In this document: positions 5,004 to 61,806 of the stretch, piece by piece
How the letters are laid out: every line of letters begins with the position of its first letter
Position numbering within the stretch: the stretch's first letter is position 1
Source of the DNA: a virus
IMG/VR virus record: IMGVR_UViG_3300037882_004127
Span: 13,860 to 77,859 of that record
DNA: 64,000 bases
Strand: one strand, 5' to 3'
Position numbers and translations under genes: made by a program
The notes under the pieces: model-generated
Database searches by the model: none
Told to the model about the DNA's origin: nothing
Seen by the model: the letters and a program-made list of their open reading frames with translations, nothing else

Positions 5004-6214
5004 GTTTAAGTTAGTTTATATGCAATAACCGGTTTAACCCGCAAGAATAATCCCGAGCCAATTTCGCCCGAACCATAAATCGGTTCAAGCTTTTTCGTTT
5101 TAACCGCGCGATTAAAACATTCTGAGTTAACAAATTGATCTAAACCTATATGCTCCTTAATTGCACGCCGCTCTGCTTGGCCGCCCTCTGATTCAACAAA
5201 AGCAATTATTTTTTCGCGCATTTCTTTAATTTGATTATTCTGTTTCATAGTATCCTAGTTTAATTAAATTTTTTAAATCCTCGGCGGCAGTCAGTAATCC
5301 AGCGGCAGAATAATAATTATTCCAATTTTTCTCTATCTCGTGCTCTTTTAACCGAGTATTCGCCCAACCCTCCCATGATTCGGCAAGACGAATCAACTCT
5401 TTTGTTTTAATTGATTTAATCATTATTTAGAGTGGGGTTAAAAACCGCTCAACTTTCCAAGCATCCGGCAATTTCTGCCCAAGCCATCTATACTTGCGAA
5501 ACATAAACCTAATGCCGCGAGCATACCATATATAAGGTCGCATATACCATTTATTCAATAAAACCGTGCGTTCATTTTGTGCATCCCAAAATTCTTTTTC
5601 ACGCGCCTTTCGTTCAGCATTCGGTTCAACCTCAAATTTCACCAACTTAATTTCCGACTCCGCATTGAATGAATACTGATATTCAACCCAATAGTCATTT
5701 GACTCTTTATCAAAGGATGTATAAAAATTGATTAACTGCGGTTTACGAACCACCCTCACCTCAACTGCGCCGGGACCATCGGAATAAACTTCCTCGCCAA
5801 TTGAGCCGTCACCGTAAATTGTATAATGATCCATCCCAGAACTTAAATCTTTGGTTTGGAAATCCCCTTGATAAATCTCGTCTACTGTTAGTTCGCCCAA
5901 ATCGGACGGCATCGGGAGACTGAAACCTCGGTGAATTTTGATAGTGTTGAAAATTCCCATTATTTTCGCCCTTTCATCGCATCATTTTTCATAGCCCAAT
6001 CAGACCTTTCCTTCATAATATTCGTATCAGCGGATAAATTATTTACAATTCCACGCAACTCTGAAATCACATTCACGGCGTTATTTAGTATAGCCACGGC
6101 ATCATCTCGTTCAAGGGAGTCATCCTCAATTAATTTGTGAATATAATTAATGTCAAAATTATGGGCCAATAACCCGCGCATTGATTTAAGTCTCATATTT
6201 AATAGATTACTAGG

Positions 6215-6768: not shown

Positions 6769-8388
6769 TTAATTCAGTAATAATTGATTCTCCCCAATCC
6801 TAAACGAGTGATTAAAGAATTTTTGCGCAATTTCGGGGCTAATGTCAACTTCTTTCGCGGCTTCTTCCTCGGAACCTAACCATTTCAACAATTTTCCCGT
6901 CTGAATATTTAAAGCGTGAATAAAATCTGGATTAAACGAAAAATGTAAGTTCCTATTATAGAACGCTTTAACCTTGAAAAGAAACTCCTTTTGCCCGTTT
7001 TCCCCCTTAAAATGATAATTAACCGCTTCGGACGAATCCCATTGATAGGGGCGCGGCTTATCTTCTACTGGAACAAAACCTAAATTATTCGCAATAACGA
7101 GCAAATCACCAATAAAATCCGCCGCATGAGGCTCTAAACCAGTGCTACATGGGGAATAGCCCTTAACCAAACCGCCGCACCTCTCTAAGACCATTCGATG
7201 TCCGACCTTTAATTTCACATGGCTGACCTCATTTGATTCATCGCGATAATAATTGTAACGGAATTGATTCTCCGAGAAGACCCTTCGATTTGAAGAATAA
7301 TTCTCAACATTGGCGAACTCAAGTAGTCTTTTATAAACTTCAACTAATTGACTGTCGAATTTTAGATTGGCGTTCCGTATCACGTACAAAACGACTGCGT
7401 AAGCATTATCTGAATTAAAATCAATCCCGCTACTTTTATTTGTTAGCCCAAGTATCTGATCGCGCGAAGATTTTGTCAAAAGCCTATTAATATTTTTCAT
7501 GCCGTCGAATAAACGGTTCCAAAATAATTTCTTCTCACTCGCCAACTTCATCTTTAAACTCGCGATTAAGCCAGCCTTTGTTATCTCGAATTCCTTCAAT
7601 AAACCATTATCAAGGGAGCAAATGGCGGAATAATTCTTTTGTAAATCGGACATTCTTTCATTATACAAGAAAACGAGGGCGTCAATGAGGTTGCGACCCG
7701 CTACCAATTGCTCATTCTTAATTTTATCCTCCAAAGGATCTTTTAAAACGGGCTCCGGGTATTTGAAGTTATCATTAAAGAATCGCGCGAATGGATCGTT
7801 ATCTTCAGAGTATCTTTGCCCCGTCCTGATTAGAAGTAAATTCACTTTGGCCCGCGCCTTTCTATCTTCAGACTCCATGAAATCAAAAGATCCTAGAGTT
7901 TCTGGATTTAACCCGCGCGCTTTAATTTCAAATTGAATATCTTTATTGTCGGCCCATCGTTCAGGAATCACCAAATAAAGTAAACAGTTAGGAGGCGATT
8001 CTTTAAGGATTTTTATTGTCCATTCAACATACTCGCTAAAGGGACAATTCGAATAAATAACATCTAACTCTTTGTCAAATAAGTTGATATGCCAGAAGTC
8101 ACAACCAAGAATGAGGTAGCTAGGGTTTAAATTACTTAAGTGAGTAGATGATTTCTCAATGGCGTAAATTGAATCGAATATACCTAATTCCGCGAAAGCA
8201 TCTAAAACTTTTCCTCCACCTGCGCCTATGTCCACAACACTCTTTAACCTTTTATAATGATCCTCATTTATGGATTTAATTGATTTCGCGGCGCATTCAA
8301 TAATGGAATTCATCGTTGGGTAATATTCATAATCTTCTAGGGAATCTTTTAATAGATTTAGTTCTTTATTAAACTTCATGGACTTCAT
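6769..8388 (-). CDS. class I SAM-dependent (DNA) methyltransferase with DUF4942-like C-terminus
   Basis: EYYPT, VDIGAGGG, YAIEKS, SNCPFSEY (NPPY-like), LVIPERW, C-terminal KAFYNRNLH. Confidence 0.7.
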   Translation of the reverse strand: MKSMKFNKELNLLKDSLEDYEYYPTMNSIIECAAKSIKSINEDHYKRLKSVVDIGAGGGKVLDAFAELGIFDSIYAIEKSSTHLSNLNPSYLILGCDFWHINLFDKELDVIYSNCPFSEYVEWTIKILKESPPNCLLYLVIPERWADNKDIQFEIKARGLNPETLGSFDFMESEDRKARAKVNLLLIRTGQRYSEDNDPFARFFNDNFKYPEPVLKDPLEDKIKNEQLVAGRNLIDALVFLYNERMSDLQKNYSAICSLDNGLLKEFEITKAGLIASLKMKLASEKKLFWNRLFDGMKNINRLLTKSSRDQILGLTNKSSGIDFNSDNAYAVVLYVIRNANLKFDSQLVEVYKRLLEFANVENYSSNRRVFSENQFRYNYYRDESNEVSHVKLKVGHRMVLERCGGLVKGYSPCSTGLEPHAADFIGDLLVIANNLGFVPVEDKPRPYQWDSSEAVNYHFKGENGQKEFLFKVKAFYNRNLHFSFNPDFIHALNIQTGKLLKWLGSEEEAAKEVDISPEIAQKFFNHSFRIGENQLLLN

Positions 8389-8397
8389 GGAATTGAT

Positions 8398-9732
8398 GAA
8401 AAGGAAACTCTCGAATTTATTTGAGAGAGGAGTTTTCGCATAAAAGGTTAAAAATTTTCACTGTATGAAATAAAATAGACAAAATTGGTGTATTGAATTA
8501 TAATCAATAAGCTAACCCGTGCCCAACTTAACCTACAAGGCAGAATTGCTTTTCCAAAGTCAAGAGGATTTTGGGAAAATTCTTAATGTGTTAAAGGCTG
8601 AGCAGCAAGTATTTAACGAAGCGTCCAAAATCCATTATGGAGACGGTTCAAAACGAAAAAATAGCATTGTTGAGCTTCACGCTGGATTTTATAGCAAATT
8701 TAGGTTAGCTCATCCTGAAATTCCATCACAAATTGTTATTCGTGGGGAACAAGCATGCTTATCGGCTTACCGTTCAATTAAATCCAATAAACACGAAATT
8801 CATAAGGCAATAGAGAAGAAGAATTTAAGCATTAGGCTAGATAAAAGAATTTATACTTATAAAGAAGACAAAATTAAATTAACCTCGTTAGACAAGCGTG
8901 TCACCGTAGATTTTAAGCGCTACCCAAAAATCGAAGAAATGCTAAAATCTTATGAATTTTGCGATCCACTTCTATTTGAACGAGACGGTAAAATCTGGAT
9001 AGCTCTTACATTTAAAGTTCCCGCAAAACCAGAATCTATTGAAAAATTAGCCGTGGGCATAGATTTGGGTGTGAATCGAGTAGTTGCTACCTCTGAGGGT
9101 AAAATATTTCAGGATAAAAAATTTAACAAAACAAAAAGAAAACTTCGATTTTTAAAGCGCCGACTCCGGTCAAAGGGGACAAAATCGGCAAGACGGCACT
9201 TAAAGAAGATCCGCCACAAAGAGGCAAATCGAAATAATAATCAATCTCATCTATTAGCGAACACCATTATTAGCTCGACCAGCGCAAATGTTTTGGTTTT
9301 GGAAGATCTGACGGGTTTAAAAAATCCCAAGAGTAAGAAAAAGAAAATGAGTAAGTCTAATAATAATAAAATTGGGCAAGTCCCTTTTGCTAGACTTAGA
9401 GAAATTTTGACCTACAAGGCACCCATTTATGGGAAAACGGTTTTACTTATTGACCCAAAATTCACGAGTCAAATTGACTCAAGAACAGGGTTAAAGGATG
9501 GGTTAAGAAAAGGCAGTAGATATTACTGTTCGGACGGAGTGATATTGGATGCAGATTTAAATGCGTCAATCAATATCACTAAACGTTCAAAACTCCCCGT
9601 TTCACTCGGTAGAAATATCGAGACTTACGGGCAGGCTGTTGTCACCCAGCCAATTGTATTTAAGTCGTTTAATTCTAAGTAATTAGAATTTTATGCATTA
9701 CAAACACTCGAATTTATTCGTGGGTAGGTGAC
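8398..9732 (+). mobile_element. IS200/IS605-family non-autonomous (IS1341-type, tnpB-only) element
   Basis: Follows TTGAT (8393-8397); left hairpin AAACTCTCGAATTTATTTGAGAG and related right hairpin AAACACTCGAATTTATTCGTGGG; ends GGTGAC; removal restores an in-frame ORF on the minus strand. Confidence 0.8.
8519..9682 (+). CDS. tnpB: RNA-guided nuclease TnpB
   Basis: RuvC motifs GIDLG, VLEDL, DADLNAS intact. Confidence 0.9.
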   Translation: MPNLTYKAELLFQSQEDFGKILNVLKAEQQVFNEASKIHYGDGSKRKNSIVELHAGFYSKFRLAHPEIPSQIVIRGEQACLSAYRSIKSNKHEIHKAIEKKNLSIRLDKRIYTYKEDKIKLTSLDKRVTVDFKRYPKIEEMLKSYEFCDPLLFERDGKIWIALTFKVPAKPESIEKLAVGIDLGVNRVVATSEGKIFQDKKFNKTKRKLRFLKRRLRSKGTKSARRHLKKIRHKEANRNNNQSHLLANTIISSTSANVLVLEDLTGLKNPKSKKKKMSKSNNNKIGQVPFARLREILTYKAPIYGKTVLLIDPKFTSQIDSRTGLKDGLRKGSRYYCSDGVILDADLNASINITKRSKLPVSLGRNIETYGQAVVTQPIVFKSFNSK

Positions 9733-13643: not shown

Positions 13644-15612
13644 GGGGGAAAGCGCCGCGTTAGGCTGAATTATCCGCCAATATGTTGCGATAACAGGTCT
13701 CAATCCATTCTTTGGCGTCCTCTAATTGAGAGTGCCCAAAAGGTGCCCAGTTTATTAGCTCGGGGTCGTGATCTTCGCGCCACTCAATAGCATTATTCAC
13801 CAATCTCTGTTTAAGGCGGAATTTGAAACCTTCTTCATAAGGGCTGGTTAAAACCCAGATGGAATTATCATTGTCGTCAAACTCCTCAATCCAATTATAT
13901 TCAGTAGGCATGTTTTCAAGTCTGGTTAAATCCGCGTGTTCAGTTTCCCGGGGGGCAATCTCAGCTTTATAAAAGTCGCCCAATAGCGGCAGGGAATCTA
14001 TATATTTTTCAAATGCCGGTGTGATTAATTTATTAAATTCGTCTTTAGCAGTGGCGACAAGCGATGGATCTTTCGAAGAGAGTCTGCGAACAATATCTTC
14101 ATTTGTCATTTTAGTAAAACCGCCACCTTGCCCGAGGCATACCATGAACGGAAGTCTTTATTTAAACCGACGAACCTTTTAACCGCTTCGTTGAACTCCG
14201 CAAATCCATTGAAGTCAGCCGGACATAAATCTTCTTGTCCTTCAACCGCTTGATCAATAATATCGGAAGCGTCTAAATTCAGGGTTGGGATAATTTTGTC
14301 AACTCCCCAAATGTACTCGGGCAATGGAGCCTCATCGTTCTCCTCGTTCACTTCTAGGTAATCATCAACCGTCTCATAATATTCTGATTCATCCCAAACG
14401 GGAAACAGCCAATTTGTCGCCGGAACTTTTGTCGCCAGTTCAAATTTAATCTTTTCATTCGCGCGCTACCATTCAGAATTCCCATATTGATTGAGTTTCT
14501 TTATTTCCTCCTCATTCAATACGTATTCAAGGATAATCTTATTTCTAGACCACTTACCGTCCGTCATAAAATACTTATTAAAAATATCTCCCGTGACCTT
14601 ATGCGACCACCAATCAGGAATTTCGCGGCCACTTTTCAAAATGGCGGGCTCAAATTGAGAGTTGCACAAATAAGATTCAATTTCGGCGAAACGGGCGGGG
14701 TCAAGCAAACCAGAATCACGTAATGAGGCAAAATTAGTAAAGATAGTCGCGTAAAGACTGGTTAGTTTTGGTTTATCGTTCATAAAATTAAATTATTGGG
14801 TCATCGACAAATATATAATCAGCCTTTACACCATTTTGTCTCGGCGTATAAATTTGGGACTCAATCAATCGAGTTTCCAAAGGAATGTCGGGCGCAAATT
14901 TTGATAGTTCGGAAAGAAAAATACCAAAAGTCAGACCTTTTCTTCCAGTGATTGTCTTGTATCTCTGATAAGCATCAGGCAACCAATCAAGGCACTCCCA
15001 ATAATCGGTCCTATTCGGAAATACTTCGGCGAATTTAATCAATTTACTCATGATCAATCCTCAAATGCGCTCCACCCTGAATAATACCAATAATTCATTT
15101 CGTCTTCCCATGTTGTATCTCGTTCATGGCCGGAGGGTTTAAAAAGCTCATGATAATCTAACCCATTTTTCGCATCATTAAACCCTTTATCATAATATTT
15201 TTTATAAGTTTCCCATGAGAAACTGTCATCTTCTGTTGGTGGTTCGTAAGCCATTTTAATCAAAGTTTAGGTTTTCCTGCAGCGTCTGAGGCTAATTGCA
15301 AATCAGTTGCTTCTTCGGGGAGGGTAAAATTAAGTGAGGCCATCATATTTAAAATTCTAAGCTTTCTTTTTTAATTTCAAGTTCCGCTCCAATTTTAGCC
15401 GCGATCATTTCAGCAACAGCCTTTGGAGTATCAATATCCTCCGTCCATTCTTTTTTAAAAGAGATTGTTTTCCCGTTTATTTCAAAATCGGCTCCATGGG
15501 TTCCGGGATGAAAATCCCAAAAATTACCAAGGAAAAGTATTTTTTTGCCAATTTTAATTTGGGCCATCTCAGTATCCCCGTCGATATATAATGTGATTTT
15601 ATTTTTCATAGC

Positions 15613-27803: not shown

Positions 27804-27889
27804 TTAAATGGTCTCCTTTAGGTTTAGGAAATATTCTCGCATAGCTTTCCACTCAGGATTCCTGTAGCCCGGCTCAACCCAAATTTTGC

Positions 27890-29146
27890 AAAAAAGTTCA
27901 CACGGCGATATAAAGTTCATGAAATTAGTGTATTCATTGTTACAAAACAAAATGTCAGTCTTAACCTACAATGTCGAATTGATTCCGAAGAGTCAAGAAG
28001 ATTTCTTAAAAATTGAGAAAATTCTTGATGCGAATCGCTTTGCGTGGAATAAAATATCTAAGGTTTATTACGGGCTAGGGAAAAACACGGATAGAAAAGA
28101 TTTGCATAAACAAACTTATTTCCCAATCCGTAGAGAAAAACCAGAAATTCCCGCACAAGTTATCATTCGTGCTCAAAATGACGTAAGGGCGGCATATAAA
28201 TCAGTAGTTAGCAATAAGCACAAAATTGTTAAACCGATAGAAAAGAAGAAATTAAGCATGAGGCTGGATAAAAGGCTTTATAGGCTTAAGGAGGGCTTAA
28301 TATTTCTGACCACTTTAGAAAAAAGATGTGAATTTACATTTAAAACATTTGAAAAATTTAACGAACTAAAAGCGAAATATGTTTTCGGCGACCCTTTAAT
28401 TTTTATCCGTGGCGGGAAACTTTATGCGGCGATTTCATTTAAGATTCCAGAAATTCCAGTTAGTAGCACCCCATTGGCAGTTGGAATTGACCTAGGAATA
28501 AAAAATATCGCTGCAACATCCGATGGGAAAATCTATACAGATAAAAAATATTTGAAAGAAAAACGGCAACTTAGATTTCTGAAAAGAAAATTAAGAGCAC
28601 GCAAAACAAAATCCGCTCGAAAACATCTAAAGAAAATTCGGCGAAAAGAGGCTAATCGCACCAAGAATTTTGCTCATCATTTGGCTAACAAAATTTTAGA
28701 TACAGAAGCAAATGTTATCGTTTTAGAAAAATTAAAAGGGATTAAACAGAAAATCTCTAAAAAACGAGGAAAAGCGTTTAATAATAAATTTTCGCAAATA
28801 CCAATTGCGATGTTAGCGACGATCATATCATATAAGGCACCCTTAAAGGGGAAAACGGTTCGTTTCGTGAATCCACAAAATACCAGTCAAATTGACCACA
28901 GAACGGGTCAAAAAGACGGAGTCCGCAAGGGTAATATCTATCTCGGAAAAGATGGAATTTTACTTCATGCGGATATCAATGCTGCAATAAATATTGCAAA
29001 ACGTTCTGAACTCCCAATACTAAGCGGAAACGCAAGTTATTGGCAAGCCGTTGTCAACCGGCTAATCGTTGGAAATAGTTTAAGCCGAAAGGTTTAAATT
29101 AATTCGTTTTCGACAAGCCTCTATCGCTTGCGATGAGGTAGTTGAC
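27890..29146 (+). mobile_element. tnpB-only IS200/IS605-like insertion
   Basis: Ends with hairpin CCTCTATCGCTTGCGATGAGG then TAGTTGAC; removal rejoins a 40-aa minus-strand ORF; left boundary inferred from frame only. Confidence 0.7.
27952..29097 (+). CDS. tnpB: RNA-guided nuclease TnpB (start likely ATG 27952)
   Basis: GIDLG, VLEKL, HADINAA RuvC motifs; clearly paralogous to 8519..9682. Confidence 0.9.
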   Translation: MSVLTYNVELIPKSQEDFLKIEKILDANRFAWNKISKVYYGLGKNTDRKDLHKQTYFPIRREKPEIPAQVIIRAQNDVRAAYKSVVSNKHKIVKPIEKKKLSMRLDKRLYRLKEGLIFLTTLEKRCEFTFKTFEKFNELKAKYVFGDPLIFIRGGKLYAAISFKIPEIPVSSTPLAVGIDLGIKNIAATSDGKIYTDKKYLKEKRQLRFLKRKLRARKTKSARKHLKKIRRKEANRTKNFAHHLANKILDTEANVIVLEKLKGIKQKISKKRGKAFNNKFSQIPIAMLATIISYKAPLKGKTVRFVNPQNTSQIDHRTGQKDGVRKGNIYLGKDGILLHADINAAINIAKRSELPILSGNASYWQAVVNRLIVGNSLSRKV

Positions 29147-36975: not shown

Positions 36976-37017
36976 GTTAATTAGATATTTATTCCACAAT
37001 CGGTGTATAATGATTAT

Positions 37018-37164
37018 ATGGCATACATCCGAACGAACATATTCCTGTCCGAAAAGCAAATGAAAGAACTGCGCGAAATCGCCCTAATCAAGGATATTAA
37101 ATTTTCCGAATTGGTGCGCACGGCGGTTAATGAGTATATTGAGAAGGAGACGAAAAAGCTATGA
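37018..37164 (+). CDS. CopG-like ribbon-helix-helix protein (48 aa, not in ORF track)
   Basis: MAYIRTNIFLSEKQMKELREIALIKDIKFSELVRTAVNEYIEKETKKL; classic RHH pattern; ATGA overlap with next gene. Confidence 0.8.
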   Translation: MAYIRTNIFLSEKQMKELREIALIKDIKFSELVRTAVNEYIEKETKKL

Positions 37165-38150
37165 GTGAAAACAAATCTGAAATTATTAACCTTCATAACG
37201 AGGGATTCTCTGTTGTCCAAATCGCCAGTAAAACAAAATATAGCAAAAAAGATATATTTGAGACTATTGTAGAAGGCGGATTTGTCCCGCGCAAATTTGA
37301 ACCAGATGAGAATATAAAGATTAAAATAATTAATGCTTTTCTAGAGAATAACTCTGTAAACAAAACATCCAAAATGTTTAACTTGTGTTTTCAAGCCACA
37401 AAAAGCATTTTAGTCAAAAGCGGCCTCAAAATTGACCCGGCGAAATATCATGTTATAGATGAATCTTTTTTCGAGACAATTGATTCGCACGAAAAGGCTT
37501 ATTATATCGGGCTAATTATGTCTGACGGGTGTTTGCTCTGGAATAGAAGAAAAGATAAGGTGGGACAATTGCTTATTAGCTTAGTGGAAGCCGATAAATA
37601 CATTCTCGAAAACTTAATTTCATTAACAAAAAGTTCAACAAAATTAAGAGTTCAAATTCACCGATGCAGGGATGGTTGCGTTCGTCAACCAATGAATGGT
37701 CTTTGTATCGCTTCGGAGGTTTTTGTTTCCCATCTGACTAAATATGGACTTTTCCCAAATAAAAGCGTCAACCACCCTTTCTTTAAAAACATTCCAGAAG
37801 AGTTTTTATCCAGCGCTATTTTGGGCTACTTTGATGGCGACGGAAGCGTTTCTATTTTAAGACAAAACACTCAACTATGTGCATCGTTCATTTCCTCAAT
37901 TGAATTTTCAAAAGAACTTTACAAAACACTTTTAAGTAAAAACATAAAGTGCTCTATAAGGGTAAGAAAAACCAAAAAGGGAACTGAGATGGGCGAAGTT
38001 CGACTAAAAGGCAATAACCAATGTCTTAAGTTGTATAGATATATGTATTCCTCCAATATCCCTTCGTTGACGAGAAAGAAGCTAAAGTTTGAAACTATGA
38101 TTGATAGAATCAAACTTGGGCTTACGAAAGATACCTCCCACTATAGCTGA
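37161..38150 (+). CDS. LAGLIDADG homing endonuclease (free-standing)
   Basis: AYYIGLIMSDG and AILGYFDGDGS motifs; antisense, overlapping the recA 3' end. Confidence 0.9.
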   Translation: MSENKSEIINLHNEGFSVVQIASKTKYSKKDIFETIVEGGFVPRKFEPDENIKIKIINAFLENNSVNKTSKMFNLCFQATKSILVKSGLKIDPAKYHVIDESFFETIDSHEKAYYIGLIMSDGCLLWNRRKDKVGQLLISLVEADKYILENLISLTKSSTKLRVQIHRCRDGCVRQPMNGLCIASEVFVSHLTKYGLFPNKSVNHPFFKNIPEEFLSSAILGYFDGDGSVSILRQNTQLCASFISSIEFSKELYKTLLSKNIKCSIRVRKTKKGTEMGEVRLKGNNQCLKLYRYMYSSNIPSLTRKKLKFETMIDRIKLGLTKDTSHYS

Positions 38151-47160: not shown

Positions 47161-48388
47161 TCAAGCTACCCGAAATAAGCCCCGGCCCCTAAAGTGGCCA
47201 AGCTTAAATACTTATGAAAAACCTCCGATCATTTCCGTAGGAAATAAAGGCGAAGCCTTTTCTCTGATTAACGGGGAAAATAAAAAACACCCAGAATTCA
47301 ATCTAAGTGTTTACCTAACCAAGGAATTAAGAGCTATATGATCTAGCACAATAAATTATACGCCCCAACCTTATATCCATAGCCCCATGCCAAACTAGCC
47401 GGAATTAAAAACACAACAGACAACCAATCCCGAGTATCATTTCTATGCGCGCACAATCCCGCCGCAAAGGCCAGCCAAACACACATAATCAGAGCTAGAC
47501 TTTCTACGAATAAGCGAAAAGTAGATTTAATCATTTATGCTCGTTAGTTTCCAAAATTTCGCCGCAATAAGCTCTTCCTGTTCTTCCTCGCTTAGCTCCC
47601 CGTTTCCCGCTCGTGCGGCATATGACCAAGCATCCGCATTCTCAATCAACTTCCTTAACCCATCGTTATTCCCGCACACACAGAATAAGTTAATCTTATG
47701 GAGAAAGTCCTCGTAAACCTTAATTTTCTCCTGATCTGTTGGGATTTTAATCATTTTCGGCCACCTTTCTCATCAACTCGTTAAATTCTTCTCCATATCC
47801 GTTGATAATATATTTTGGGTTAGATGTTGGGTCTCGCCCTTCGTGAATGCAAGTAAAATCCTCAATAATATCATTTAATGGGACATCAAAATCAATTTGC
47901 GCGATTAGTTTACCATCTTTCTTGATCTCATGCCAGTATTCACCTTTTTTATATCGGCAATCCCATCCAACCTTATAACCCAACGATTCAAAATATCTAA
48001 TAACTTCTTGGTTTTGATGTGTCATATTAAGCATCCCTAAGTTTCATTAACCGCGACCGTTCCTCAAGCAACTCGTTCAATCGTTTATACCATTTCGTTT
48101 TATCCTCGTTTGATCGGGCATCCATCCAACACCCGCGCGCCATGGATAAAGTCTTGTCAAGTTCTTCAATTAATTTAACGTAATCTTTGTTCATGCAATT
48201 TTTAATGTTACTTTATCCACAATAGGAATCTGTAGCCCAATACTCGCGGCGTCAAGTGATTTTCCGACACCAATTTTCTCCCAACCAGTTTCAACGTGAC
48301 TTAATCGTTTGAAAATAACCTTTTTCCCGGAACCAAAAGATAACAATCCGCGCCGTTCTTCCAAACTTACAAAAATCCAAATAATTAC

Positions 48389-49624
48389 TCATTTTGACTT
48401 TTTGTTGGACTTCTGCTTCATCAAGGAACTAATCGGATTCGCAAGCGAATCTAATGAACTTCCCTCTCCACAGACTTTAATTCCCGCAGAACTTGCGGTA
48501 TTTTTGTTATGCATATCGTTTAGATAATAGTTTTTCAGGTTAATAGCGACGTTGAGATCGCGGTCGGTAGTTGTATTATCGTCATGTATAGTCGTTCTGT
48601 CCGCCAAAGTCAAGGAATTATTTATTTTTCCTGATTTGTGGTCCAGTTTTGAACTGGGATAGAAGCGATTCGCGATAATCACTGTCCGACCATACCATTT
48701 TGCCTTATATTCAATCATTCGACGAAACGCATAAAATGACGCATCGCCAATAGACTGAGCTAATTTATGATTTTTCATCATATTAGAAACAGATAAATCC
48801 TCTAAAACAATAACTTGGTTATCGTTTACTATTTTAGTGGTTGCTTTGTGTATGGCGTCTTTTCTAATATTTGAAATTCTATAATGTAATTTTGCTAATT
48901 TTTTCTTTGCTTTCTCTCTGTTTTTAGAACCTTTCTTCTTTTTGGATAATTGTCTTTGTTTGCGTTTTAGTTTCTTTAAGTTCTTTTTTAATGCCTTGGG
49001 ATTTTCAAAAATTGTTCCGTCTGAGCAGGTGGCCAGAACCTTAATTCCCAAATCTATACCGACCGCTTCATTTGCGGGTGTGGGTGCGACCTTTACCACA
49101 TCTTCAATCAGGCACGAGACAAACCACTTTCCCGCCCTACTACTAACTGTTACCGATTTAATCTCAGCATCTAGCGGAATATAATCTGATTCTTTCAATT
49201 TTACTTCGCCAATTCTAGGCAATTTAATATGGTTTCTATCTGAGATGTAAATTGAACCATCTAATTTGAATGATTGTTTTTCGTTTTTCTTAGATTTGAA
49301 CTTCGGAAAACCCTTTTTACCTTTAACTTTTTTCTTGCAACGGGCGAAAAAGTTCTTAAATGCAATATCACAATTTATCAGGGCTGATTGCGGAGCAGAT
49401 TTACTTGAATTATACATCCAACCAAGTTCGGATTGCTTTAACTTATTCAACTCTCTATGTAACTCTATTGCATTTGGGATTTTCTCTTTTTTCTCAAACG
49501 CCTCCTTCTTCTTCGCTAACGCCCAATTATAAGCAAATCTCGCACAACCAGCATGTTGCGATAATAAAGTTCGTTGCTTATTATTAACGTCTAATTCTAT
49601 TTTATAAGCACGAAGAAAGTTCAT
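48389..49624 (-). CDS. tnpB: IS607-type TnpB
   Basis: RAYKIEL...HAGCARFAYNWAL, GFPKFKSK, GIDLG, VLEDL, DRDLN. Confidence 0.92.
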   Translation of the reverse strand: MNFLRAYKIELDVNNKQRTLLSQHAGCARFAYNWALAKKKEAFEKKEKIPNAIELHRELNKLKQSELGWMYNSSKSAPQSALINCDIAFKNFFARCKKKVKGKKGFPKFKSKKNEKQSFKLDGSIYISDRNHIKLPRIGEVKLKESDYIPLDAEIKSVTVSSRAGKWFVSCLIEDVVKVAPTPANEAVGIDLGIKVLATCSDGTIFENPKALKKNLKKLKRKQRQLSKKKKGSKNREKAKKKLAKLHYRISNIRKDAIHKATTKIVNDNQVIVLEDLSVSNMMKNHKLAQSIGDASFYAFRRMIEYKAKWYGRTVIIANRFYPSSKLDHKSGKINNSLTLADRTTIHDDNTTTDRDLNVAINLKNYYLNDMHNKNTASSAGIKVCGEGSSLDSLANPISSLMKQKSNKKSK

Positions 49625-50782
49625 TCAATCACAATATTTAAAAACATATCCGTTTTTTGTTTTTTTGTTTCTCCCGCCGCATATTGCCCAAATAGCTGGT
49701 TTAGATATATTAAACTTGCTAGATACTTCATCGGAGGAATTGAATTTTCCTACTAACTCACGATTTTTATCAAATACTAGTATGCTTCGACTGTCTCCTC
49801 CCACCTTTTCCATGTCAAAACCTAATTTTTTCCTCGCTTTTAGCAAGGTGCTAGGATGGATTCCAATATCTTTTGCTACGGCTTCCCAGTTATTTCCATT
49901 TTCTTGGTATTTTTTGGTTAAGAAATCTGAAGTTAAGAAATTTGTATCCCGTCTTTGAATCTCTTGAGACAGACATTTTGTATATAAATCATATTTTCTA
50001 TCCAAAGAAACCAACGAATCCTTATAAAAGACATTTAATATTGGTTGACATAAATTTATTCCGCATACCCCAAAGGTAAAAACAGAAGTATTCTTCCTTT
50101 TTTTTCTGACCGCATCAGTTTTTATATGTTTTTTTATAAAGATTTCAAAATCTATAATGATTTGTTCTTTCCCTACGGCTGATATAGACCAATTTTTGGC
50201 AGTTCTATCCTTCGCCACTGAAAAACTTATGCATCCATCTCCATCGAAATATCCCCTCCAAAAATGTCTTTCAAATTCGCTTGGAATGCCCGCTGGATAA
50301 GAAGCCGTTTCTGTTTTATTTGGGACTATTCCATATTTAGAAAGATCGGAAACCATTTTTTTACAGCCTATAAATAAACCACAAGCAGAATATAACTTTT
50401 CTTTTATTTTGGCGTTAATTTTTTTAATTAAATGATTAGACTCAATAAATTTTCTAAATTTTTCAACATGACTTATGTCGGCTAAAGCCAATCTAATTGC
50501 AAAATGTTTCTTCCCAGCGACATACCCATCTGCCATTATAAATCCTAGCCAGTATGCCTTTTCTTCAGTGTCGATTTTTTCAAATACACTTTCATTCAAA
50601 GAATATTTTTTGTAAATAGGGTCTCGGCTTTTTCTTATGCAAATCCCTCGCTTTTTTAGCTCTCTAATACAACACGAATAACTGAGCCCAAACCGAGCCG
50701 CTGATACTTTAGCCGTATCGCCGCTCATATAACAATTGACCATTCCATCTTTTTGATTTTGATTTACGATTTTACTTGGCAT
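49625..50782 (-). CDS. LAGLIDADG endonuclease with C-terminal HTH/NUMOD1 (start likely ATG 50782)
   Basis: AYWLGFIMADG, FWRGYFDGDG, C-terminal V.VFDK....GKF.S..E...GYVFKY. Confidence 0.9.
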   Translation of the reverse strand: MPSKIVNQNQKDGMVNCYMSGDTAKVSAARFGLSYSCCIRELKKRGICIRKSRDPIYKKYSLNESVFEKIDTEEKAYWLGFIMADGYVAGKKHFAIRLALADISHVEKFRKFIESNHLIKKINAKIKEKLYSACGLFIGCKKMVSDLSKYGIVPNKTETASYPAGIPSEFERHFWRGYFDGDGCISFSVAKDRTAKNWSISAVGKEQIIIDFEIFIKKHIKTDAVRKKRKNTSVFTFGVCGINLCQPILNVFYKDSLVSLDRKYDLYTKCLSQEIQRRDTNFLTSDFLTKKYQENGNNWEAVAKDIGIHPSTLLKARKKLGFDMEKVGGDSRSILVFDKNRELVGKFNSSDEVSSKFNISKPAIWAICGGRNKKTKNGYVFKYCD

Positions 50783-50845
50783 ATATAAGTAATACACCAA
50801 ACATCGTTGAAAGTGAAAGCGTTTTACATCGTATTTTCATTTTAC

Positions 50846-51094
50846 TCACGATTTACTAAAAGCTATGATTTTTTCAATAGCGTCTTTAATTTTTTCTAAT
50901 TCTGAAACCGGAATGTTATCCTTAATCTGGTCTTTCACTATAATTTTTTCAATATCAGTTTTATAATAACGGCGGTGCCCGCCTTCGGTGTGAAATGGCG
51001 TTAGTTTTCCGTCACGCTCCCAATTTCTTAGGGTTTCGTCAGAAACGCCCAAAAGAGACGCGGCTTCACTGATAGATAGGATGTTTTTATCCAT
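50846..51094 (-). CDS. MerR-type HTH protein (IS607 TnpA DNA-binding domain only)
   Basis: LSISEAASLLGVSDETLRNWERDGKL...TEGGHRRY; no YARVS serine-recombinase motif; start likely at MDKNIL. Confidence 0.8.
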   Translation of the reverse strand: MDKNILSISEAASLLGVSDETLRNWERDGKLTPFHTEGGHRRYYKTDIEKIIVKDQIKDNIPVSELEKIKDAIEKIIAFSKS

Positions 51095-51776
51095 TGTTAT
51101 TAATAATTCTCTTCTTAGCGGTATCAAAAGAATCTTGATCCTTTTCTATTCCGATAAATCGCCGGTTTGTATTTTTCGCGGCTGAACATATTGTTGCAGA
51201 ACCAGCAAACGGGTCTAAAATTAAATCTCCTTCATCAGAACTATTCGTCACTAATTTTTCAATAAAATCATATGGCTTCTCCGTCACATGTAGTTTGCCA
51301 GATTTTGCGGTTGGCGTTTTTACAAACTCATAATCACGCGAGGTCATATCGTTAATAGGTTTAGCCGCACCTTTTCTAAAAAATAAAACAAACTCAGTAT
51401 ATTTTAAATACCAACGATTTGGCATTTTTGTATCCTTAATCATACTGATGATATTATGCAGTTTGAAACACGCTTTTTGAGATTGATTTAAATAATCTTG
51501 GATGCTGTTGATATTGGCGAAAGTGTAAAAATGGGTATCATCTTTTAAGACTCGAAAGCACTCACTCATCCAAGCGTAAGTGTCTGGCAATTTTCCATCA
51601 AAGAGATTTTCGGAAGAACTCGCAGGCATATAATTTGGGCGACAACTTTTCCCATTTTTCGTCATTTTATATGGCGGGTCAGTGATTATTAAATCAACGG
51701 ATTTATCAGGAACCGAAGCAATCAGCTCTAAACAATCACCATGATAAATGTTATTAGGCTCAATCAGCATACTCAA
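51087..51776 (-). CDS. N6-adenine/N4-cytosine DNA methyltransferase (beta class)
   Basis: GDC, TDPPY, HVTEKP, LDPFAGS, IGIE. Confidence 0.9.
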   Translation of the reverse strand: MSMLIEPNNIYHGDCLELIASVPDKSVDLIITDPPYKMTKNGKSCRPNYMPASSSENLFDGKLPDTYAWMSECFRVLKDDTHFYTFANINSIQDYLNQSQKACFKLHNIISMIKDTKMPNRWYLKYTEFVLFFRKGAAKPINDMTSRDYEFVKTPTAKSGKLHVTEKPYDFIEKLVTNSSDEGDLILDPFAGSATICSAAKNTNRRFIGIEKDQDSFDTAKKRIINNNG

Positions 51777-51943
51777 ACCAATCCTTTCTGTTGAAACAAT
51801 CTAAACCATTCATCATAAATCTTCTGAAATTCCTCAACGGTGGGAATCTCATCCAATTCAAACGGAATCTGATGGATTTCCCCATCGTCCGTTTCAAACT
51901 CTGTTTTGGTAATTCTAGTAATCATTTTAAGTTGTGCTTTCAT
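51773..51943 (-). CDS. small acidic hypothetical protein at the IS607 left end
   Basis: ORF directly behind a GTGTAT motif inside the element. Confidence 0.55.
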   Translation of the reverse strand: MKAQLKMITRITKTEFETDDGEIHQIPFELDEIPTVEEFQKIYDEWFRLFQQKGLV

Positions 51944-52024
51944 ATATAAATACACGGAAAATCTACAAAAGTGAAATTATTTTTGACTATTTTGTAGTTA
52001 TTTTAGATTTTTAAGCTACTGTTG

Positions 52025-52105
52025 CCGACCCTCGGGGTAATGAAGTTGATCGCCGAAAATATTAAAGGGGATTTTCCCGGCGTATAGTTTTTGTTTTTTA
52101 CTCAT
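52025..52105 (-). pseudogene. 5' fragment of the gene interrupted by the IS607-like element (3' fragment 48191..48352)
   Basis: MSKKQKLYAGKIPFNIFGDQLHYPEGR joins RGLLSFG...KIA* in frame; ATGA overlaps at both outer ends. Confidence 0.65.
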
Positions 52106-54730: not shown

Positions 54731-54796
54731 ATGGACATGCAAATTTATTTAATAGAAAACTTAATCAACGAGATGAAATATGTTGGCCAGACGATC
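54731..54796 (+). pseudogene. 5' remnant of a GIY-YIG endonuclease gene
   Basis: MDMQIYLIENLINEMKYVGQTI after GTGTAT; similarity stops at the junction with the tnpB fragment. Confidence 0.7.
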
Positions 54797-55327
54797 TTCT
54801 GGTTTGATTGGGTTATTAATCGGCTCTTCAACTAAAATAGAGATAAAATATTTACCTGCCGCATTTTTAGAGACCGTAGAGGTTTTAACTTTCCCCTCAA
54901 AAGTTCTATGAAAGACGCATTTGATTCCATCTTTAAATTTCGGAATAAAAACTCGTCCAGTTCTGAAGTCCACACGTGTACTCTGTGGGTTCTGGAAGGA
55001 TTGTTTGTCGTATTTACTTTTAAATTTCGGAAATCCCTTTTTCTCTTTAAAGAATTTAGTAAAGGCCGAATCTAAATTTCTCAATGACATCTGTAAGGAC
55101 TGAGAATTAACTTCGTTTAACCAAGAAAATTCCTCTGATTCTTTCCAGTCCACCGTCTGATTCATGAGTTCAAAAACCGAAATCCCCTTCTTTTCTTTTT
55201 GATAGATGGAATTTTTAATATCTAAGGCACGGTTATAAACAAAACGGACACATCCAAAAGACTTAGAAATTAAAATTTCTTGTTCTTTGGTTGGATATAT
55301 CCTGTATCTGTATGCTTTTTGTCTCAC
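54761..55327 (-). pseudogene. tnpB: TnpB truncated before RuvC-I
   Basis: AYRYRIYPT..Q...FGCVRFVYN, WL.EVNSQSLQ, FPKFKSK; similarity ends at IKPE, no GIDLG. Confidence 0.85.
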
Positions 55328-58278: not shown

Positions 58279-61200
58279 TCACCCACACTGACTCGATCCG
58301 CAATCACCGCATTTTTTGCAACTTTCAGAGCGAATTATATTATGGCTTCCACAATTTGAGCAGGTTTCCCCGTGGACAATAGTCCCGTCCTTAATGCATT
58401 TTTTTAATGCTCGGCTAAGAGAACGCGCGAAACACGTCATTTCTCCCTCTGTCTTTTCCAATTGATGAACAATGAACGAAATATCCGCCCCGTGTCGCAA
58501 CGAAGTCGAAATCATGCGTGTCAAGGCATCCGCGCTAGAATCTGAGTGGCCATTAGTCAAATCGAATTTTTCTTCGTCACTAACCAAAGAATAATTACCA
58601 CGGGAGTTTTTCACAATCTTTCCGGAAGTTACAGATTTTGGAATAAAAATAATTCCATCTTTTTCATTTGTCCCCGTGAATACCTCATAAGGCTCTCCGT
58701 CCATTAACCCAACAATTCCATAATATTTAACCCCTTTTGAAGTTAGATGTTCAACCGTGCAATCTAGTTCCTTGGGTCGTTTTGGCGCAGTGGTCTTTTT
58801 AATAGCTGACTTAACCTCCTTTGGCTCTTCTTTGGAAGATAAAACCGCCGTCATTGTGCCCGCGCGATAAGTGGTAATCCCCTTAATTGTCCCCGTTTTG
58901 TAAGCATCTAAATATACGTTAGAGAACTTTTCAAATGGATAATCATTAGGAATATTGATAGTTTTACTACAGCTCGCATCTAACCAACGAGTAAACCCTT
59001 TTAAATCGGTAATATGATCCTCAACGGAAATATCTACAGTTGTTTTGGCCCATTCGGCAGAAGGATTCCATTCGCCTCGATTTTCAAGCTCTCTTACTGC
59101 ATAATCTTGGCATAAGACCTCTTTGGTTAAACCGCGACCCTTATCAATTTTATAAGTCACCCCATCCTTCACCGCTCTAAGAATCGTTTCGTCACCCTCT
59201 TTTGCAAATTTAAAAATACCAAATTCAATAAATTCGCCCTCCCAATATTTTGGACAAACAGAAAGTAAATCTTTTGGACACTCAGGAATAATCACGGTCC
59301 GGATATACTCATGCATGAAAATGGGCTCACACCCACCACTTACGACATTGGCCAAAATTGAAGTATTCCCTGTTGGCTGAATAGAAAATAACGATGAATT
59401 ACGAATGCCGTTTTTGCGAATTTTATTCTTTAGTTCATTTGGAATACCGATTGAATTAAAATAATTTACATTAGCCTGCTTCTCGGGTTCACATCCAACG
59501 AACATCCCCTTTTCCGCCGCTAAATTAGCTGATTCATCAATAATGCTAAAACACATTTTTGACATAATCTTTTCTTTTAGCTGCTCAGCCTCATTAGAAG
59601 CAAACTTGACCTTGAGCATATAAAGAAGAGACCCCCAGCCCATAATGCCAACACCTACGCGACGCAATTCCTTAATCGTTTTAATATACTCTGGTAATGG
59701 GGCATAAGTAAGATCGTTGATATTATCAGAGAAACGAAGAGCAATTCGGGAAAACTTCTCCAACTTATCAAAATCAAACCGATTATCAGCGCCAATAAAT
59801 TGCGTTAAATTGATGGAGATTAGATTGCAAGACGAAAAGGGCGGCATTGTCTGCTCGGAACAATTAGAAACATTACATCCGCCCGTCCAATAAGTGTGAC
59901 TTTCATTATCTACGGTAATATGAAAAACCTCCTCTTCGGAAATTAATTCTATTGATTTTATATCTCTATTTTTTATTCTTTTATTGGTGGAGAATTGCTT
60001 ATTTAAAATAAGTGAGTGAAGTTTTTCGTTTTTATAAGACTGTATAAAGCCAATTATTTTGAAAAACTTATCCTTATCAGCACAAATATTTAAATCATAA
60101 GACTGTTTGCATGTATAATCCCCATTGGAAAATTTAATAGTTGAGGGTTTATTCGTGGTATAATATGAATTTATACCTAAATAAGATAGCATCAATTGAA
60201 CCTGCTCTATAACAGCAAACGAAGTTTGTTTTAATGATACTCTATCTCCACAAATCCCACCATTAGCAGTAAATAAGCCGCGCAAAAATCCACATACCTT
60301 ATTTCTGTTTCCGTTAAAAAACCTACTTGGAATTACGCGATTATATGTTTTGGGCAATTCTTCGGCTGTTATAGTTGTCTTTATTTCATATGCGGTGTCC
60401 GACATTGCACGCCGATCTTTCCCTATTAGACTAGAGATTTCGGAGTTAAAATAATCTTGATCTTTTTCGCCGATACATAAAAATACAAGGTTGTTCGATG
60501 CTTTATGCACAGATCCATCGCCTAAAACAAGACCATCCATAACATCTTGTGGGTCTATATTGATAGACGACAGGAATTCACAGGAGAACGTGTCTACGGA
60601 TTCACATTCCTTGGCCTCTTTCTTTGTTCCGTTTTCAACCAAACGGTGGTCGTCCGTGCCAAGAAAAAACCCAGACGTTGTCTTGTATTTATAGACCTCG
60701 CGCATTCCGTTTGACCATTTTTTTGAAACTTTTGTCCATCCATCTGCCGACCAGATCAAATCTCCTTCATTAATATCTCCAAATGTTTTAATTCCACCGG
60801 GGGTCAAAACCGTGGCAGATTTAGGCTGGCACGCATTTGTTTCTTGTATTTCAAGACTTCCGTAATTAAATAGATACTTCTCGTTGGCCCGGTCTAAGAA
60901 TAAGACACCCGGCTCAGCCCGATTGTATGTAGATTCCGTGATAAGGTTCCAAATATCAATGATTGGGGCCGACTTAAAAACGACCGTTTTATACCCCTTC
61001 TTCTCCCATTTTTCAATATTCCCATCCCATTCGGATTTATATTTTTCGTGCTCGGTGTCCGGGTATCGGAAATCCCACATGATTTTGCGTGCTTCGTCAA
61101 TTCCATGTTTGGATTTGATCTCTTCCGCCTTTGAGACCTTATCCATAAAGGAATTAGAACAGTTAATCGACATATTAAATTTCGACAATCTACCCGGAGT

Positions 61201-61806
61201 TTGTTTGGCCGTTATAAACTCTTCGGCATCAGGATGTTCGATATTCAAGATGGCCATTTGCGCCCCTTTACGAATCTTATTCTTCTTTTTATTCGTTTTG
61301 ACGAAATTAATCCCACTCCCGGCTGTGATGATTTCTGAAGATTTATCAAAAATCTCCATATACTTTACCGCGCCCGGAGACTCTACGCCGATTCCCTTGA
61401 TTAAGGAGCCCCTTGGTCGAATAAAGGAGAAATTTAAGCCCCATCCGCCCTCTGACTTAAGGGTGAGGGATTGTTCTAACAAGACCTGTAAAATGCCAGA
61501 AAGAGAATCACAATCGTAAGATGGGCGACCACCGGTATAACAATTGATTAGGGTTGTGCCCTTATGTGAGGTCCCCGCGTTTGCGTAAATTCTTCCGCCG
61601 CATGTGACAGTAAAATCACAAAGCATTTCATAAAACTTGTGATACCATTCTTCCTTTAGTTCGTCCGTTTTCTCCACGGAAGCCGCAGACTTCGCGACCC
61701 GTTTAAATGTGCAATCAATGGATTCATCTAGATAGTCCTTATAGGTTGATTTCCATACTTCTTCGGAAAATTCATCTTTAAAAATCTCAGCGTTAGTCTT
61801 ACTCAT
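58279..61806 (-). CDS. nrdJ: class II (B12-dependent) ribonucleotide reductase with intein
   Basis: GGRI..NAG, NC, GG.G.NFS.IRP, RKGAQM, FNMS, EPG..F.D, CNL, R.G.G.MG, QPTG, SKTIN, YR.G; C-terminal Zn ribbon; no ATP cone. Confidence 0.9.
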   Translation of the reverse strand: MSKTNAEIFKDEFSEEVWKSTYKDYLDESIDCTFKRVAKSAASVEKTDELKEEWYHKFYEMLCDFTVTCGGRIYANAGTSHKGTTLINCYTGGRPSYDCDSLSGILQVLLEQSLTLKSEGGWGLNFSFIRPRGSLIKGIGVESPGAVKYMEIFDKSSEIITAGSGINFVKTNKKKNKIRKGAQMAILNIEHPDAEEFITAKQTPGRLSKFNMSINCSNSFMDKVSKAEEIKSKHGIDEARKIMWDFRYPDTEHEKYKSEWDGNIEKWEKKGYKTVVFKSAPIIDIWNLITESTYNRAEPGVLFLDRANEKYLFNYGSLEIQETNACQPKSATVLTPGGIKTFGDINEGDLIWSADGWTKVSKKWSNGMREVYKYKTTSGFFLGTDDHRLVENGTKKEAKECESVDTFSCEFLSSINIDPQDVMDGLVLGDGSVHKASNNLVFLCIGEKDQDYFNSEISSLIGKDRRAMSDTAYEIKTTITAEELPKTYNRVIPSRFFNGNRNKVCGFLRGLFTANGGICGDRVSLKQTSFAVIEQVQLMLSYLGINSYYTTNKPSTIKFSNGDYTCKQSYDLNICADKDKFFKIIGFIQSYKNEKLHSLILNKQFSTNKRIKNRDIKSIELISEEEVFHITVDNESHTYWTGGCNVSNCSEQTMPPFSSCNLISINLTQFIGADNRFDFDKLEKFSRIALRFSDNINDLTYAPLPEYIKTIKELRRVGVGIMGWGSLLYMLKVKFASNEAEQLKEKIMSKMCFSIIDESANLAAEKGMFVGCEPEKQANVNYFNSIGIPNELKNKIRKNGIRNSSLFSIQPTGNTSILANVVSGGCEPIFMHEYIRTVIIPECPKDLLSVCPKYWEGEFIEFGIFKFAKEGDETILRAVKDGVTYKIDKGRGLTKEVLCQDYAVRELENRGEWNPSAEWAKTTVDISVEDHITDLKGFTRWLDASCSKTINIPNDYPFEKFSNVYLDAYKTGTIKGITTYRAGTMTAVLSSKEEPKEVKSAIKKTTAPKRPKELDCTVEHLTSKGVKYYGIVGLMDGEPYEVFTGTNEKDGIIFIPKSVTSGKIVKNSRGNYSLVSDEEKFDLTNGHSDSSADALTRMISTSLRHGADISFIVHQLEKTEGEMTCFARSLSRALKKCIKDGTIVHGETCSNCGSHNIIRSESCKKCGDCGSSQCG
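59863..60831 (-). mobile_element. LAGLIDADG intein (323 aa) at the RNR active-site cysteine
   Basis: TNA|CQPKSATVL...GGCNVSN|CSEQ; internal GLVLGDGS and FLRGLFTANG; splicing restores NACSE. Confidence 0.9.

Follow-up and report, generated by a model that had tools for sequence, protein, structure and literature searches.

A probable degenerate IS607-family element in a phage genome, carrying a DNA methyltransferase and a LAGLIDADG endonuclease gene

The DNA analysed here, referred to as the window, is a stretch of 64,000 nucleotides (nt) covering positions 13,860 to 77,859 of the IMG/VR virus record IMGVR_UViG_3300037882_004127, which is 77.9 kb long and by estimate about 36% complete. All coordinates are given in window numbering. 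On the minus strand, downstream of thyX (52992-52102), lies a segment of 3,676 nt (48353-52028) that is most probably a degenerate, cargo-carrying member of a phage-borne lineage of the IS607 family, in which the catalytic domain of the transposase TnpA has gone. Read along the minus strand, it comprises a left end (LE), an open reading frame (ORF) of 56 amino acids (aa), a DNA methyltransferase gene, an ORF for a helix-turn-helix (HTH) domain, a 60-nt spacer, a LAGLIDADG endonuclease gene, tnpB, and a predicted omegaRNA that runs into the right end (RE). The ends were set by comparison with relatives, which are designated by L numbers below. The original prediction for this locus had proposed a single non-autonomous IS607-family unit with a methyltransferase, a LAGLIDADG gene and TnpB, a view borne out by the same ends on about twenty relatives at unrelated sites; the observations on which it drew, including the ATGA overlap with thyX, the internal genes and the start of tnpB right after the LAGLIDADG stop, are all present. 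The features of the locus, all on the minus strand, are listed here with the evidence for each.

52016-52105, minus: 29-codon ORF after thyX, which enters LE, its last four sense codons and stop (13 nt) being element DNA (ORF reading)
52029-52032, minus: flanking AGGG, the target motif and predicted target-adjacent motif (TAM), outside the element (16 related left ends, L191, a natural empty site, and the TAM of CboIStron)
51944-52028, minus: LE, beginning TCGGCAACAGTAG..., with the AAAAATCTAAA motif and a promoter-like TTTCACTTT-N-GTGTAT at 51976-51950 (LE alignment)
51773-51943, minus: 56-aa accessory ORF, conserved in this IS607 subgroup (homologues upstream of tnpA)
51087-51770, minus: beta-class N6/N4 DNA methyltransferase in cargo slot 1, the interval between the small ORF and tnpA (PF01555, phrog_67)
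50846-51091, minus: TnpA remnant, a winged-helix/MerR-type DNA-binding domain (residues 1-50) with an unrelated 32-aa tail (TnpA homology)
50792-50818, minus: second copy of the promoter-like motif TTTCACTTT-N-GTGTAT, 5' of the LAGLIDADG gene (repeat and motif search)
49625-50782, minus: free-standing LAGLIDADG homing endonuclease with two motifs (PF14528, phrog_4645)
48389-49624, minus: tnpB, 411 aa (Pfam and NCBIfam matches, structure-based alignment)
48353-48564, minus: predicted omegaRNA scaffold and RE, terminating in ...GTAAGTTTGGAAGAACGG (covariation in 16 sequences; RE kept in 18 elements)
48337-48352, minus: predicted guide-matching flank CGCGGATTGTTATCTT, of inferred length (adjoins RE; unique in the record)
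48191-48346, minus: downstream host ORF, 51 aa from TTG 48346, its frame remaining open as far as 48364 within RE (ORF reading)

Relatives of the element were collected by a TnpB search of IMG/VR (loci 54-63% identical) and by a query with the small ORF, which added 18 viral loci and 16 loci from prokaryotic assemblies. By tblastn, the order small ORF, tnpA, tnpB is invariable. A canonical element of this lineage is 2.14-2.17 kb long and consists of LE, a promoter, the 56-aa ORF, tnpA (with DNA-binding and serine-recombinase domains), tnpB, and the omegaRNA/RE; L015, for example, has a canonical tnpA-tnpB pair, and L056 has a homologue of the 56-aa ORF ahead of tnpA. The lineage inserts at RGGG without duplication and can carry cargo in two slots, the first ahead of tnpA and the second between tnpA and tnpB.

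The ends are defined by the points at which the relatives cease to resemble each other. On the right, where 36 nt separate tnpB from the joint ...GTAAGTTTGGAAGAACGG/CGCGGATTG (a slash marks joints throughout), 18 related elements are conserved through ...GTAAGTTTnnA(G/A)GAACGG and unrelated beyond it, so that the boundary at 48353, already proposed in the original prediction, is exact. On the left, 16 related elements and L191 read flank-RGGG-TTGACAAC(A/T)G..., with no flank similarity left of GGG; the base before GGG is A in 9, G in 6 and T in 1 of the 16, and L191 has GGGG. Similarity to the LE of L191, L167, L160 and L168 begins at 52031-52035, and the LE homology places the boundary at 52028, 2 nt beyond the 52026 given earlier. 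The end motifs quoted at that time are present; related elements also have their core AAAAATCTAAA at the left end and, in inverted orientation, at the right end. Flank similarity among the copies is at chance level; one resemblance, to the left flank of L014, looked real at first and proved to be no higher. In L162, what resembles the 3' terminus of a tRNA gene (GGTTCGACTCC ... CCA) lies in the left flank (5880-5912), at a distance of 16 nt from the GGG target.

The way in which the element joins its target is recorded by a natural pair of alleles. L206 reads ...TACTGGG/ACAACAAATAA... (ACAACAA after TGGG) and has no insertion, and its filled counterpart L169 reads ...TACTGGG-LE...RE-CCGG-ACAACAAGTAA... 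at the same place. The L169 element interrupts the tail of a 612-aa gene, the uninterrupted orthologues of which end in DYW[ND][NS]K, as predicted by the junction rule: NGGG remains in the flank in its entirety, and the GG that closes RE is part of the element. In the present copy this gives AGGG/element...ACGG/flank, with the GG core at both junctions, the (G)GG target and the lack of target-site duplication that characterize IS607, in which exchange occurs at the GG core (PMC6188088). In CboIStron, TGGG serves TnpA as target and TnpB as TAM, UCGG closes the scaffold, and the donor joint consists of the TAM fused straight to the target (bioRxiv 10.1101/2023.11.20.567912). By the family rule, the predicted empty allele of the present locus is ...CATTACCCCGAGGG/CGCGGATTGTTATC..., i.e. 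...CCCCGAGGG/CGCGGATTG... (GAGGG/CGCGGATTG). The host site might be the 51-aa gene that starts from TTG 48346, with the flank GAGGG, 6 nt before the TTG, as ribosome-binding site, a possibility to which little weight is given. A Shine-Dalgarno-like 4-mer lies upstream of 22% of the long ORFs of this phage, compared with a background of 9.5%, and in few relatives does a gene begin within the first 12 nt of the right flank. Relatives of thyX reach 54% identity at most and show no synteny downstream, and among GenBank phages no DNA relative of the locus, near or distant, was found.

Between the 29-codon ORF and the 56-aa ORF lies an AT-rich stretch. The promoter-like TTTCACTTT-N-GTGTAT occurs twice in the whole window, both times inside the element, 5' of the small ORF and 5' of the LAGLIDADG gene. 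The 56-aa ORF (51943-51773; 56/60 aa) has counterparts ahead of tnpA in 15 other elements, with identities of 45-90% (60-90% in 12 of the 15). Its assignment to the element, made in the original prediction, agrees with its presence upstream of tnpA in every relative examined. An AlphaFold2 (AF2) model has a predicted local distance difference test (pLDDT) score of 91 and contains three strands and a helix. No fold match at E<=0.001 was found in the PDB, no match in Pfam or PHROG and no homologue in GenBank phages, and the protein atlas returned unnamed viral clusters alone. The adjacent methyltransferase matches PF01555 (E=1.9e-34) and phrog_67, and carries DPPY near residue 32 and FAGS near residue 190; since DPPY stands ahead of the FxGxG-type motif, it belongs to the beta class. 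Slot 1 is likewise occupied by a methyltransferase in L191 and L160.

The HTH ORF (82 aa) is 84% identical over 51 aa to the full-length TnpA of L160, L167 and L168. The homology ends after ...DIEK, where the TnpA proteins of these three go on to ...YCRVSSHEQK..., and in the solved structure of IS1535 TnpA the catalytic domain begins at about residue 51 (PMC6188088). The earlier description of a MerR-type HTH protein without a serine-recombinase motif is thereby confirmed: the ORF has no PF00239 match, tblastn detects no remnant of the catalytic domain in the element, and no resolvase domain is found across the 77.9-kb record. Among GenBank phages, the best matches of the ORF are IS607 transposases of Nodularia and Microcystis phages. 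An IS607-type TnpA, with an HTH and a serine-recombinase domain, is found in L191, L168 and L161 and is missing here, and the element is best described as a decayed derivative and not as an autonomous IS607 member. Because the catalytic domain is lost, excision and integration by its own means should be impossible.

The course of this decay is suggested by the nearest relative, L191, a 4.8-kb contig binned with a metagenome-assembled genome (MAG) of Patescibacteria, whose TnpB is 88% identical, the DNA identity being 84% over 1,266 nt. It contains, in order, the small ORF, a PF01555 methyltransferase (slot 1), a TnpA of 198 aa that is near-complete and short of its last ~12 residues only, a D12-class Dam methyltransferase (slot 2), and tnpB, and is bounded by GGGG/TTGAC... 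and ...GAACGG. Blocks of homology to L191 extend over 52031-51671, 51182-50946 and 49617-48353, and the intervening 50945-49618, with the HTH tail, the promoter copy and the LAGLIDADG gene, takes the place of the catalytic domain and the Dam gene of an L191-like ancestor. At L191:3832-4385, the element adjoins a 5'-truncated tnpB of another insertion sequence type, perhaps as a result of insertion into another element.

The LAGLIDADG gene (50782-49625, with TTG 50800 as an alternative start) encodes the motifs LGFIMADGY and RGYFDGDG of the monomeric type (PF14528; phrog_4645, E=4e-57), together with extra HTH-like N- and C-terminal parts, and its product is 39% identical to that of a homing endonuclease gene (HEG) nested in tnpA of L167. 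In L167 and L160, the LAGLIDADG gene occupies one and the same position within tnpA (after ...EKVEE), and the conserved helix-E region has been removed. The HEG ORFs (L167:6738-7769 and L160:7725-8780) end in the TnpA tail SSQNRKKKEKE..., i.e. they are fused in frame to the surviving tail. This looks like homing into tnpA, with the present copy representing a further step of decay. A second LAGLIDADG gene occurs in the window at 37003-38150 (+) (28% identical, E=2e-26); it is preceded by a 53-aa ORF and by a promoter-like GTGTAT...TATATG, as in the element.

The cargo of other members of the lineage is varied. In L160, slot 1 contains a C5 methyltransferase, and tnpA is followed by the LAGLIDADG gene, a PF01555 methyltransferase, a PF05869 Dam and a D12 methyltransferase. 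L167 carries a split PF01555 methyltransferase in addition to its LAGLIDADG gene, L168 a methyltransferase, and L175 a pair of ResIII-type helicases. In L014 (5620-7245) and L016 (RE at 7248), a C2H2 zinc-finger ORF (PF13912) replaces the small ORF and tnpA; both carry the same right end, and L014 also the same left end. L050:5939-6818 is an 879-nt deletion derivative, in which LE is joined to the 3' half of tnpB and the omegaRNA region and RE are kept. The recurrent passengers of the lineage are methyltransferases, orphan and of at least four classes. Long contigs from filamentous cyanobacteria (L196-L204) contain the small ORF and tnpA at about 50% identity, and thus the three-gene form is not confined to viruses; tnpB is adjacent only in L200, and L201 has a more distant tnpB on the opposite strand.

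TnpB has the D/E/D triad of its RuvC domain, with GIDLG, LEDL and DRDLN aligning with the family motifs; it was aligned to an AI-designed TnpB-like nuclease (9yyg), and matches ISDra2 TnpB (8h1j) with E=3e-63. The omegaRNA was predicted from an alignment of the last 240 nt through RE of 16 elements. Its consensus has 25 pairs, with 95.7% of cells paired compared with 40-53% when the partners are slid, and 14 of the pairs show compensatory changes; on four of five measures none of 500 shuffles reached the observed value, and on the fifth one of 500 did. In this fold, the codons of the RuvC DRD motif pair with TAGATTTTTGT of RE, enclosing two inner hairpins, and the present copy keeps 22 of the 25 pairs. 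Rfam contains no matching family at E<=1. The guide suggested in the original prediction, CGCGGATTGTTATCTT directly after RE, is upheld, and this flank occurs only once in the 77.9-kb record, where the next-best site has two mismatches. Beside the guide template RE offers ACGG, the same difference at position -3 between self and non-self as in CboIStron.

Other readings of the locus have to be weighed against that of one decayed IS607 unit. It is extremely unlikely that a solo TnpB insertion merely lies beside ordinary phage genes (small ORF, methyltransferase, HTH regulator and free-standing HEG). Other stand-alone TnpB genes and HEG cassettes do exist in this phage, and the methyltransferase has its closest homologues (64%) in arrays of methyltransferase genes that include no insertion-sequence parts, but the small ORF, LE and HTH share 74-79% DNA identity with their counterparts in elements at unrelated loci, L191 has this arrangement too (small ORF, methyltransferase, tnpA, cargo, tnpB), enclosed by the same ends, and the flanks of all copies are unrelated. 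For the same unit, the original prediction had placed the recombination at the GG of TCGG, so that an 80-aa host gene was split in frame, the empty allele was GAGGGTCGGCGCGGATTG, and the TAM ended in TCGG. This is improbable too, although the join does give an open 80-aa frame with both start and stop in ATGA overlaps with neighbouring genes: the 29-codon ORF from 52105, which overlaps the thyX stop, reads ...HYPEGRQQ and a stop, and the downstream frame reaches the ATGA overlap at 48191-48194. The frame opens only by joining 4 nt inside the element (GGTCGG/CGC), in-frame joins are expected one time in three by chance, and the host fragments lack relatives, so that their origin from a single gene is unsupported. 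In the left end, CCCCGA-GGG-TCGGCAACAGTAG, TCGG aligns without gaps to the family TTGA in GGG/TTGACAAC (TAGG in L014, TTGC in L165), which makes it element sequence; canonical ends carry GA instead of GG at this place, which rules it out as the crossover point, and the natural empty site places the joint directly after NGGG. The 80-aa gene is thus an artefact of a junction set 4 nt too far inside. The joint predicted by the family rule is CCCCGAGGGCGCGGATTG, with the two host ORFs in different frames, and the sole alternative joint that the mechanism would permit, with one G fewer, also fails to fuse them. By the same rule TCGG forms the first 4 nt of the element, and the TAM is predicted to be AGGG (52032-52029), or RGGG across the family. 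L191, on the right of which lies part of a further tnpB, was considered as a frame test of the junction and rejected, as its left flank could be joined to that fragment in no trustworthy frame.

Several observations weigh against the favoured interpretation, that of an inserted IS607 derivative whose nuclease may still be at work. A search of viral and metagenome contigs for the empty allele of this locus, with an exact pattern that covers all junction models (TTCATTACCCCGA-N0-9-CGCGGATTGTTAT), gave 0 matches; the host C-fragment has no relatives among 5.8 billion proteins, and neither host ORF has relatives. Insertion at this particular locus is therefore deduced from the family alone. Two of the first four bases of the left end depart from the family consensus (TCGG for TTGA), which could impair mobilisation in trans, and, with so incomplete a record, a helper TnpA elsewhere in the genome can be neither excluded nor assumed. 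All four zinc-finger cysteines of TnpB (the CCCC of the TNB domain) are replaced, and the omegaRNA has three C-U mismatches, all of them in the long-range helix (helix 1, 3 of 10 pairs); thus, nuclease activity may be reduced or lost. These changes, and the consideration that ‘restorative’ cleavage is no longer needed without a transposase, would also suit a TnpB that is no homing nuclease and is decaying or exapted, e.g. as a TldR-like RNA-guided regulator, in an element that is a fixed relic. Such an outcome is unlikely, given that the RuvC triad is intact, the 411-codon ORF is open in DNA of 35% G+C, and the guide matches the flank as in active elements. The zinc-finger-less form is limited to this copy, L191 and L014 (17 of 19 other relatives keep both CxxC pairs, and the remaining two are cut off). 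It has been kept through much divergence, standing beside a near-complete TnpA in L191 and sharing 63% identity in L014, which argues for retained function.

With the element taken as a decayed IS607 unit, a model of its propagation is proposed. In its boldest form, which is less likely than not, the lineage would be a cargo platform with fixed ends, a promoter, the 56-aa protein and two swappable slots, in which TnpB-omegaRNA acts as a natural RNA-guided gene drive, copying anti-restriction methyltransferases and nested HEGs between co-infecting phages even after the loss of the transposase, and the DNA-binding remnant of TnpA and the 56-aa protein serve as regulators of the drive. In the favoured interpretation itself, TnpB-omegaRNA would cut element-free alleles (AGGG followed by CGCGGATTGTTATCTT..., i.e. 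AGGG-CGCGGATTG...) in co-infecting sibling phages, and recombinational repair would copy the entire 3.7-kb package. The ACGG of RE would escape self-cleavage, like TCGG relative to TGGG in CboIStron. The methyltransferase would modify phage DNA against host restriction, a benefit that pays for carriage, and the LAGLIDADG gene would have arrived as a selfish element within another, homing into the 3' portion of tnpA. A cognate TnpA supplied in trans could still mobilise the element through its conserved ends. The original prediction had likewise envisaged homing by two nucleases, a methyltransferase that may protect the carrier and an HTH protein that may act as a repressor by binding the ends.

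IS607 elements are textbook two-gene insertion sequences, and a group I intron is, to our knowledge, the sole extra module described for them. The present lineage resembles IS607, IS1535 and ISC1926 in the type of TnpA, with the serine-recombinase domain from near residue 51 and tnpB downstream, and in the GG core at both ends, the (G)GG target without duplication and the subterminal repeat motifs. It differs from them in its conserved third gene (the 56-aa ORF) and its two cargo slots, in the repeated presence of orphan methyltransferases, and in the LAGLIDADG invasion at a fixed tnpA site that disables the transposase; this copy keeps the DNA-binding domain of TnpA alone, adds the methyltransferase and LAGLIDADG genes, and has a TnpB without zinc finger. 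CboIStron of Clostridium botulinum (TnpA_S, TnpB and omegaRNA) is similar in that the flanking NGGG is both TnpA target and TnpB TAM, the RE/scaffold ends in NCGG, with position -3 separating self from empty site, and the guide lies directly after RE. By contrast, its extra module is a group I intron, where the cargo here is protein-coding, and its TAM is TGGG, where RGGG is predicted here, in a copy without a working TnpA.

The LAGLIDADG gene, promoter-equipped and placed inside the territory of another gene, is comparable to Seg and Mob of T-even phages and to HEGs nested in mobile elements, and two relatives have such a gene at one fixed tnpA site, as homing predicts. In contrast to those cases, the invaded gene is that of a transposase, one selfish element apparently disabling another. 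The methyltransferase is like the orphan anti-restriction methyltransferases of phages in being a solitary beta-class N6/N4 enzyme without a partner nuclease, but here and in several relatives such enzymes lie between transposon ends beside an RNA-guided nuclease, which offers a route for spread.

In the literature, no paper was found on IS607 elements that carry a methyltransferase or a LAGLIDADG gene as cargo or have a conserved third gene, and non-restorative homing of transposons between co-infecting phages appears in a recent review as a concept only. The element is one of a large set of phage transposons with cargo, apparently undescribed so far. If TnpB still cuts empty alleles, an anti-restriction gene would spread among phages by RNA-guided homing without a transposase, and the predicted TAM (AGGG) and guide allow this homing to be tested directly. 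A natural test of the need for the zinc finger is provided by the TnpB clade that lacks it.

Outside the element, the phage is crowded with selfish elements. The window contains three TnpB genes of other subfamilies, at 8519-9682 (+), 27886-29097 (+) and 54761-55327 (-), which are 32-36% identical to the TnpB of the element; two are full-length and opposed to their neighbours, and one is reduced to its N-terminal 188 aa. A fourth additional TnpB gene is found outside the window, where the record begins. At 58279-61806 (-), a ribonucleotide reductase ORF of 1,175 aa has, as judged by eye, a mid insert of intein/LAGLIDADG type.

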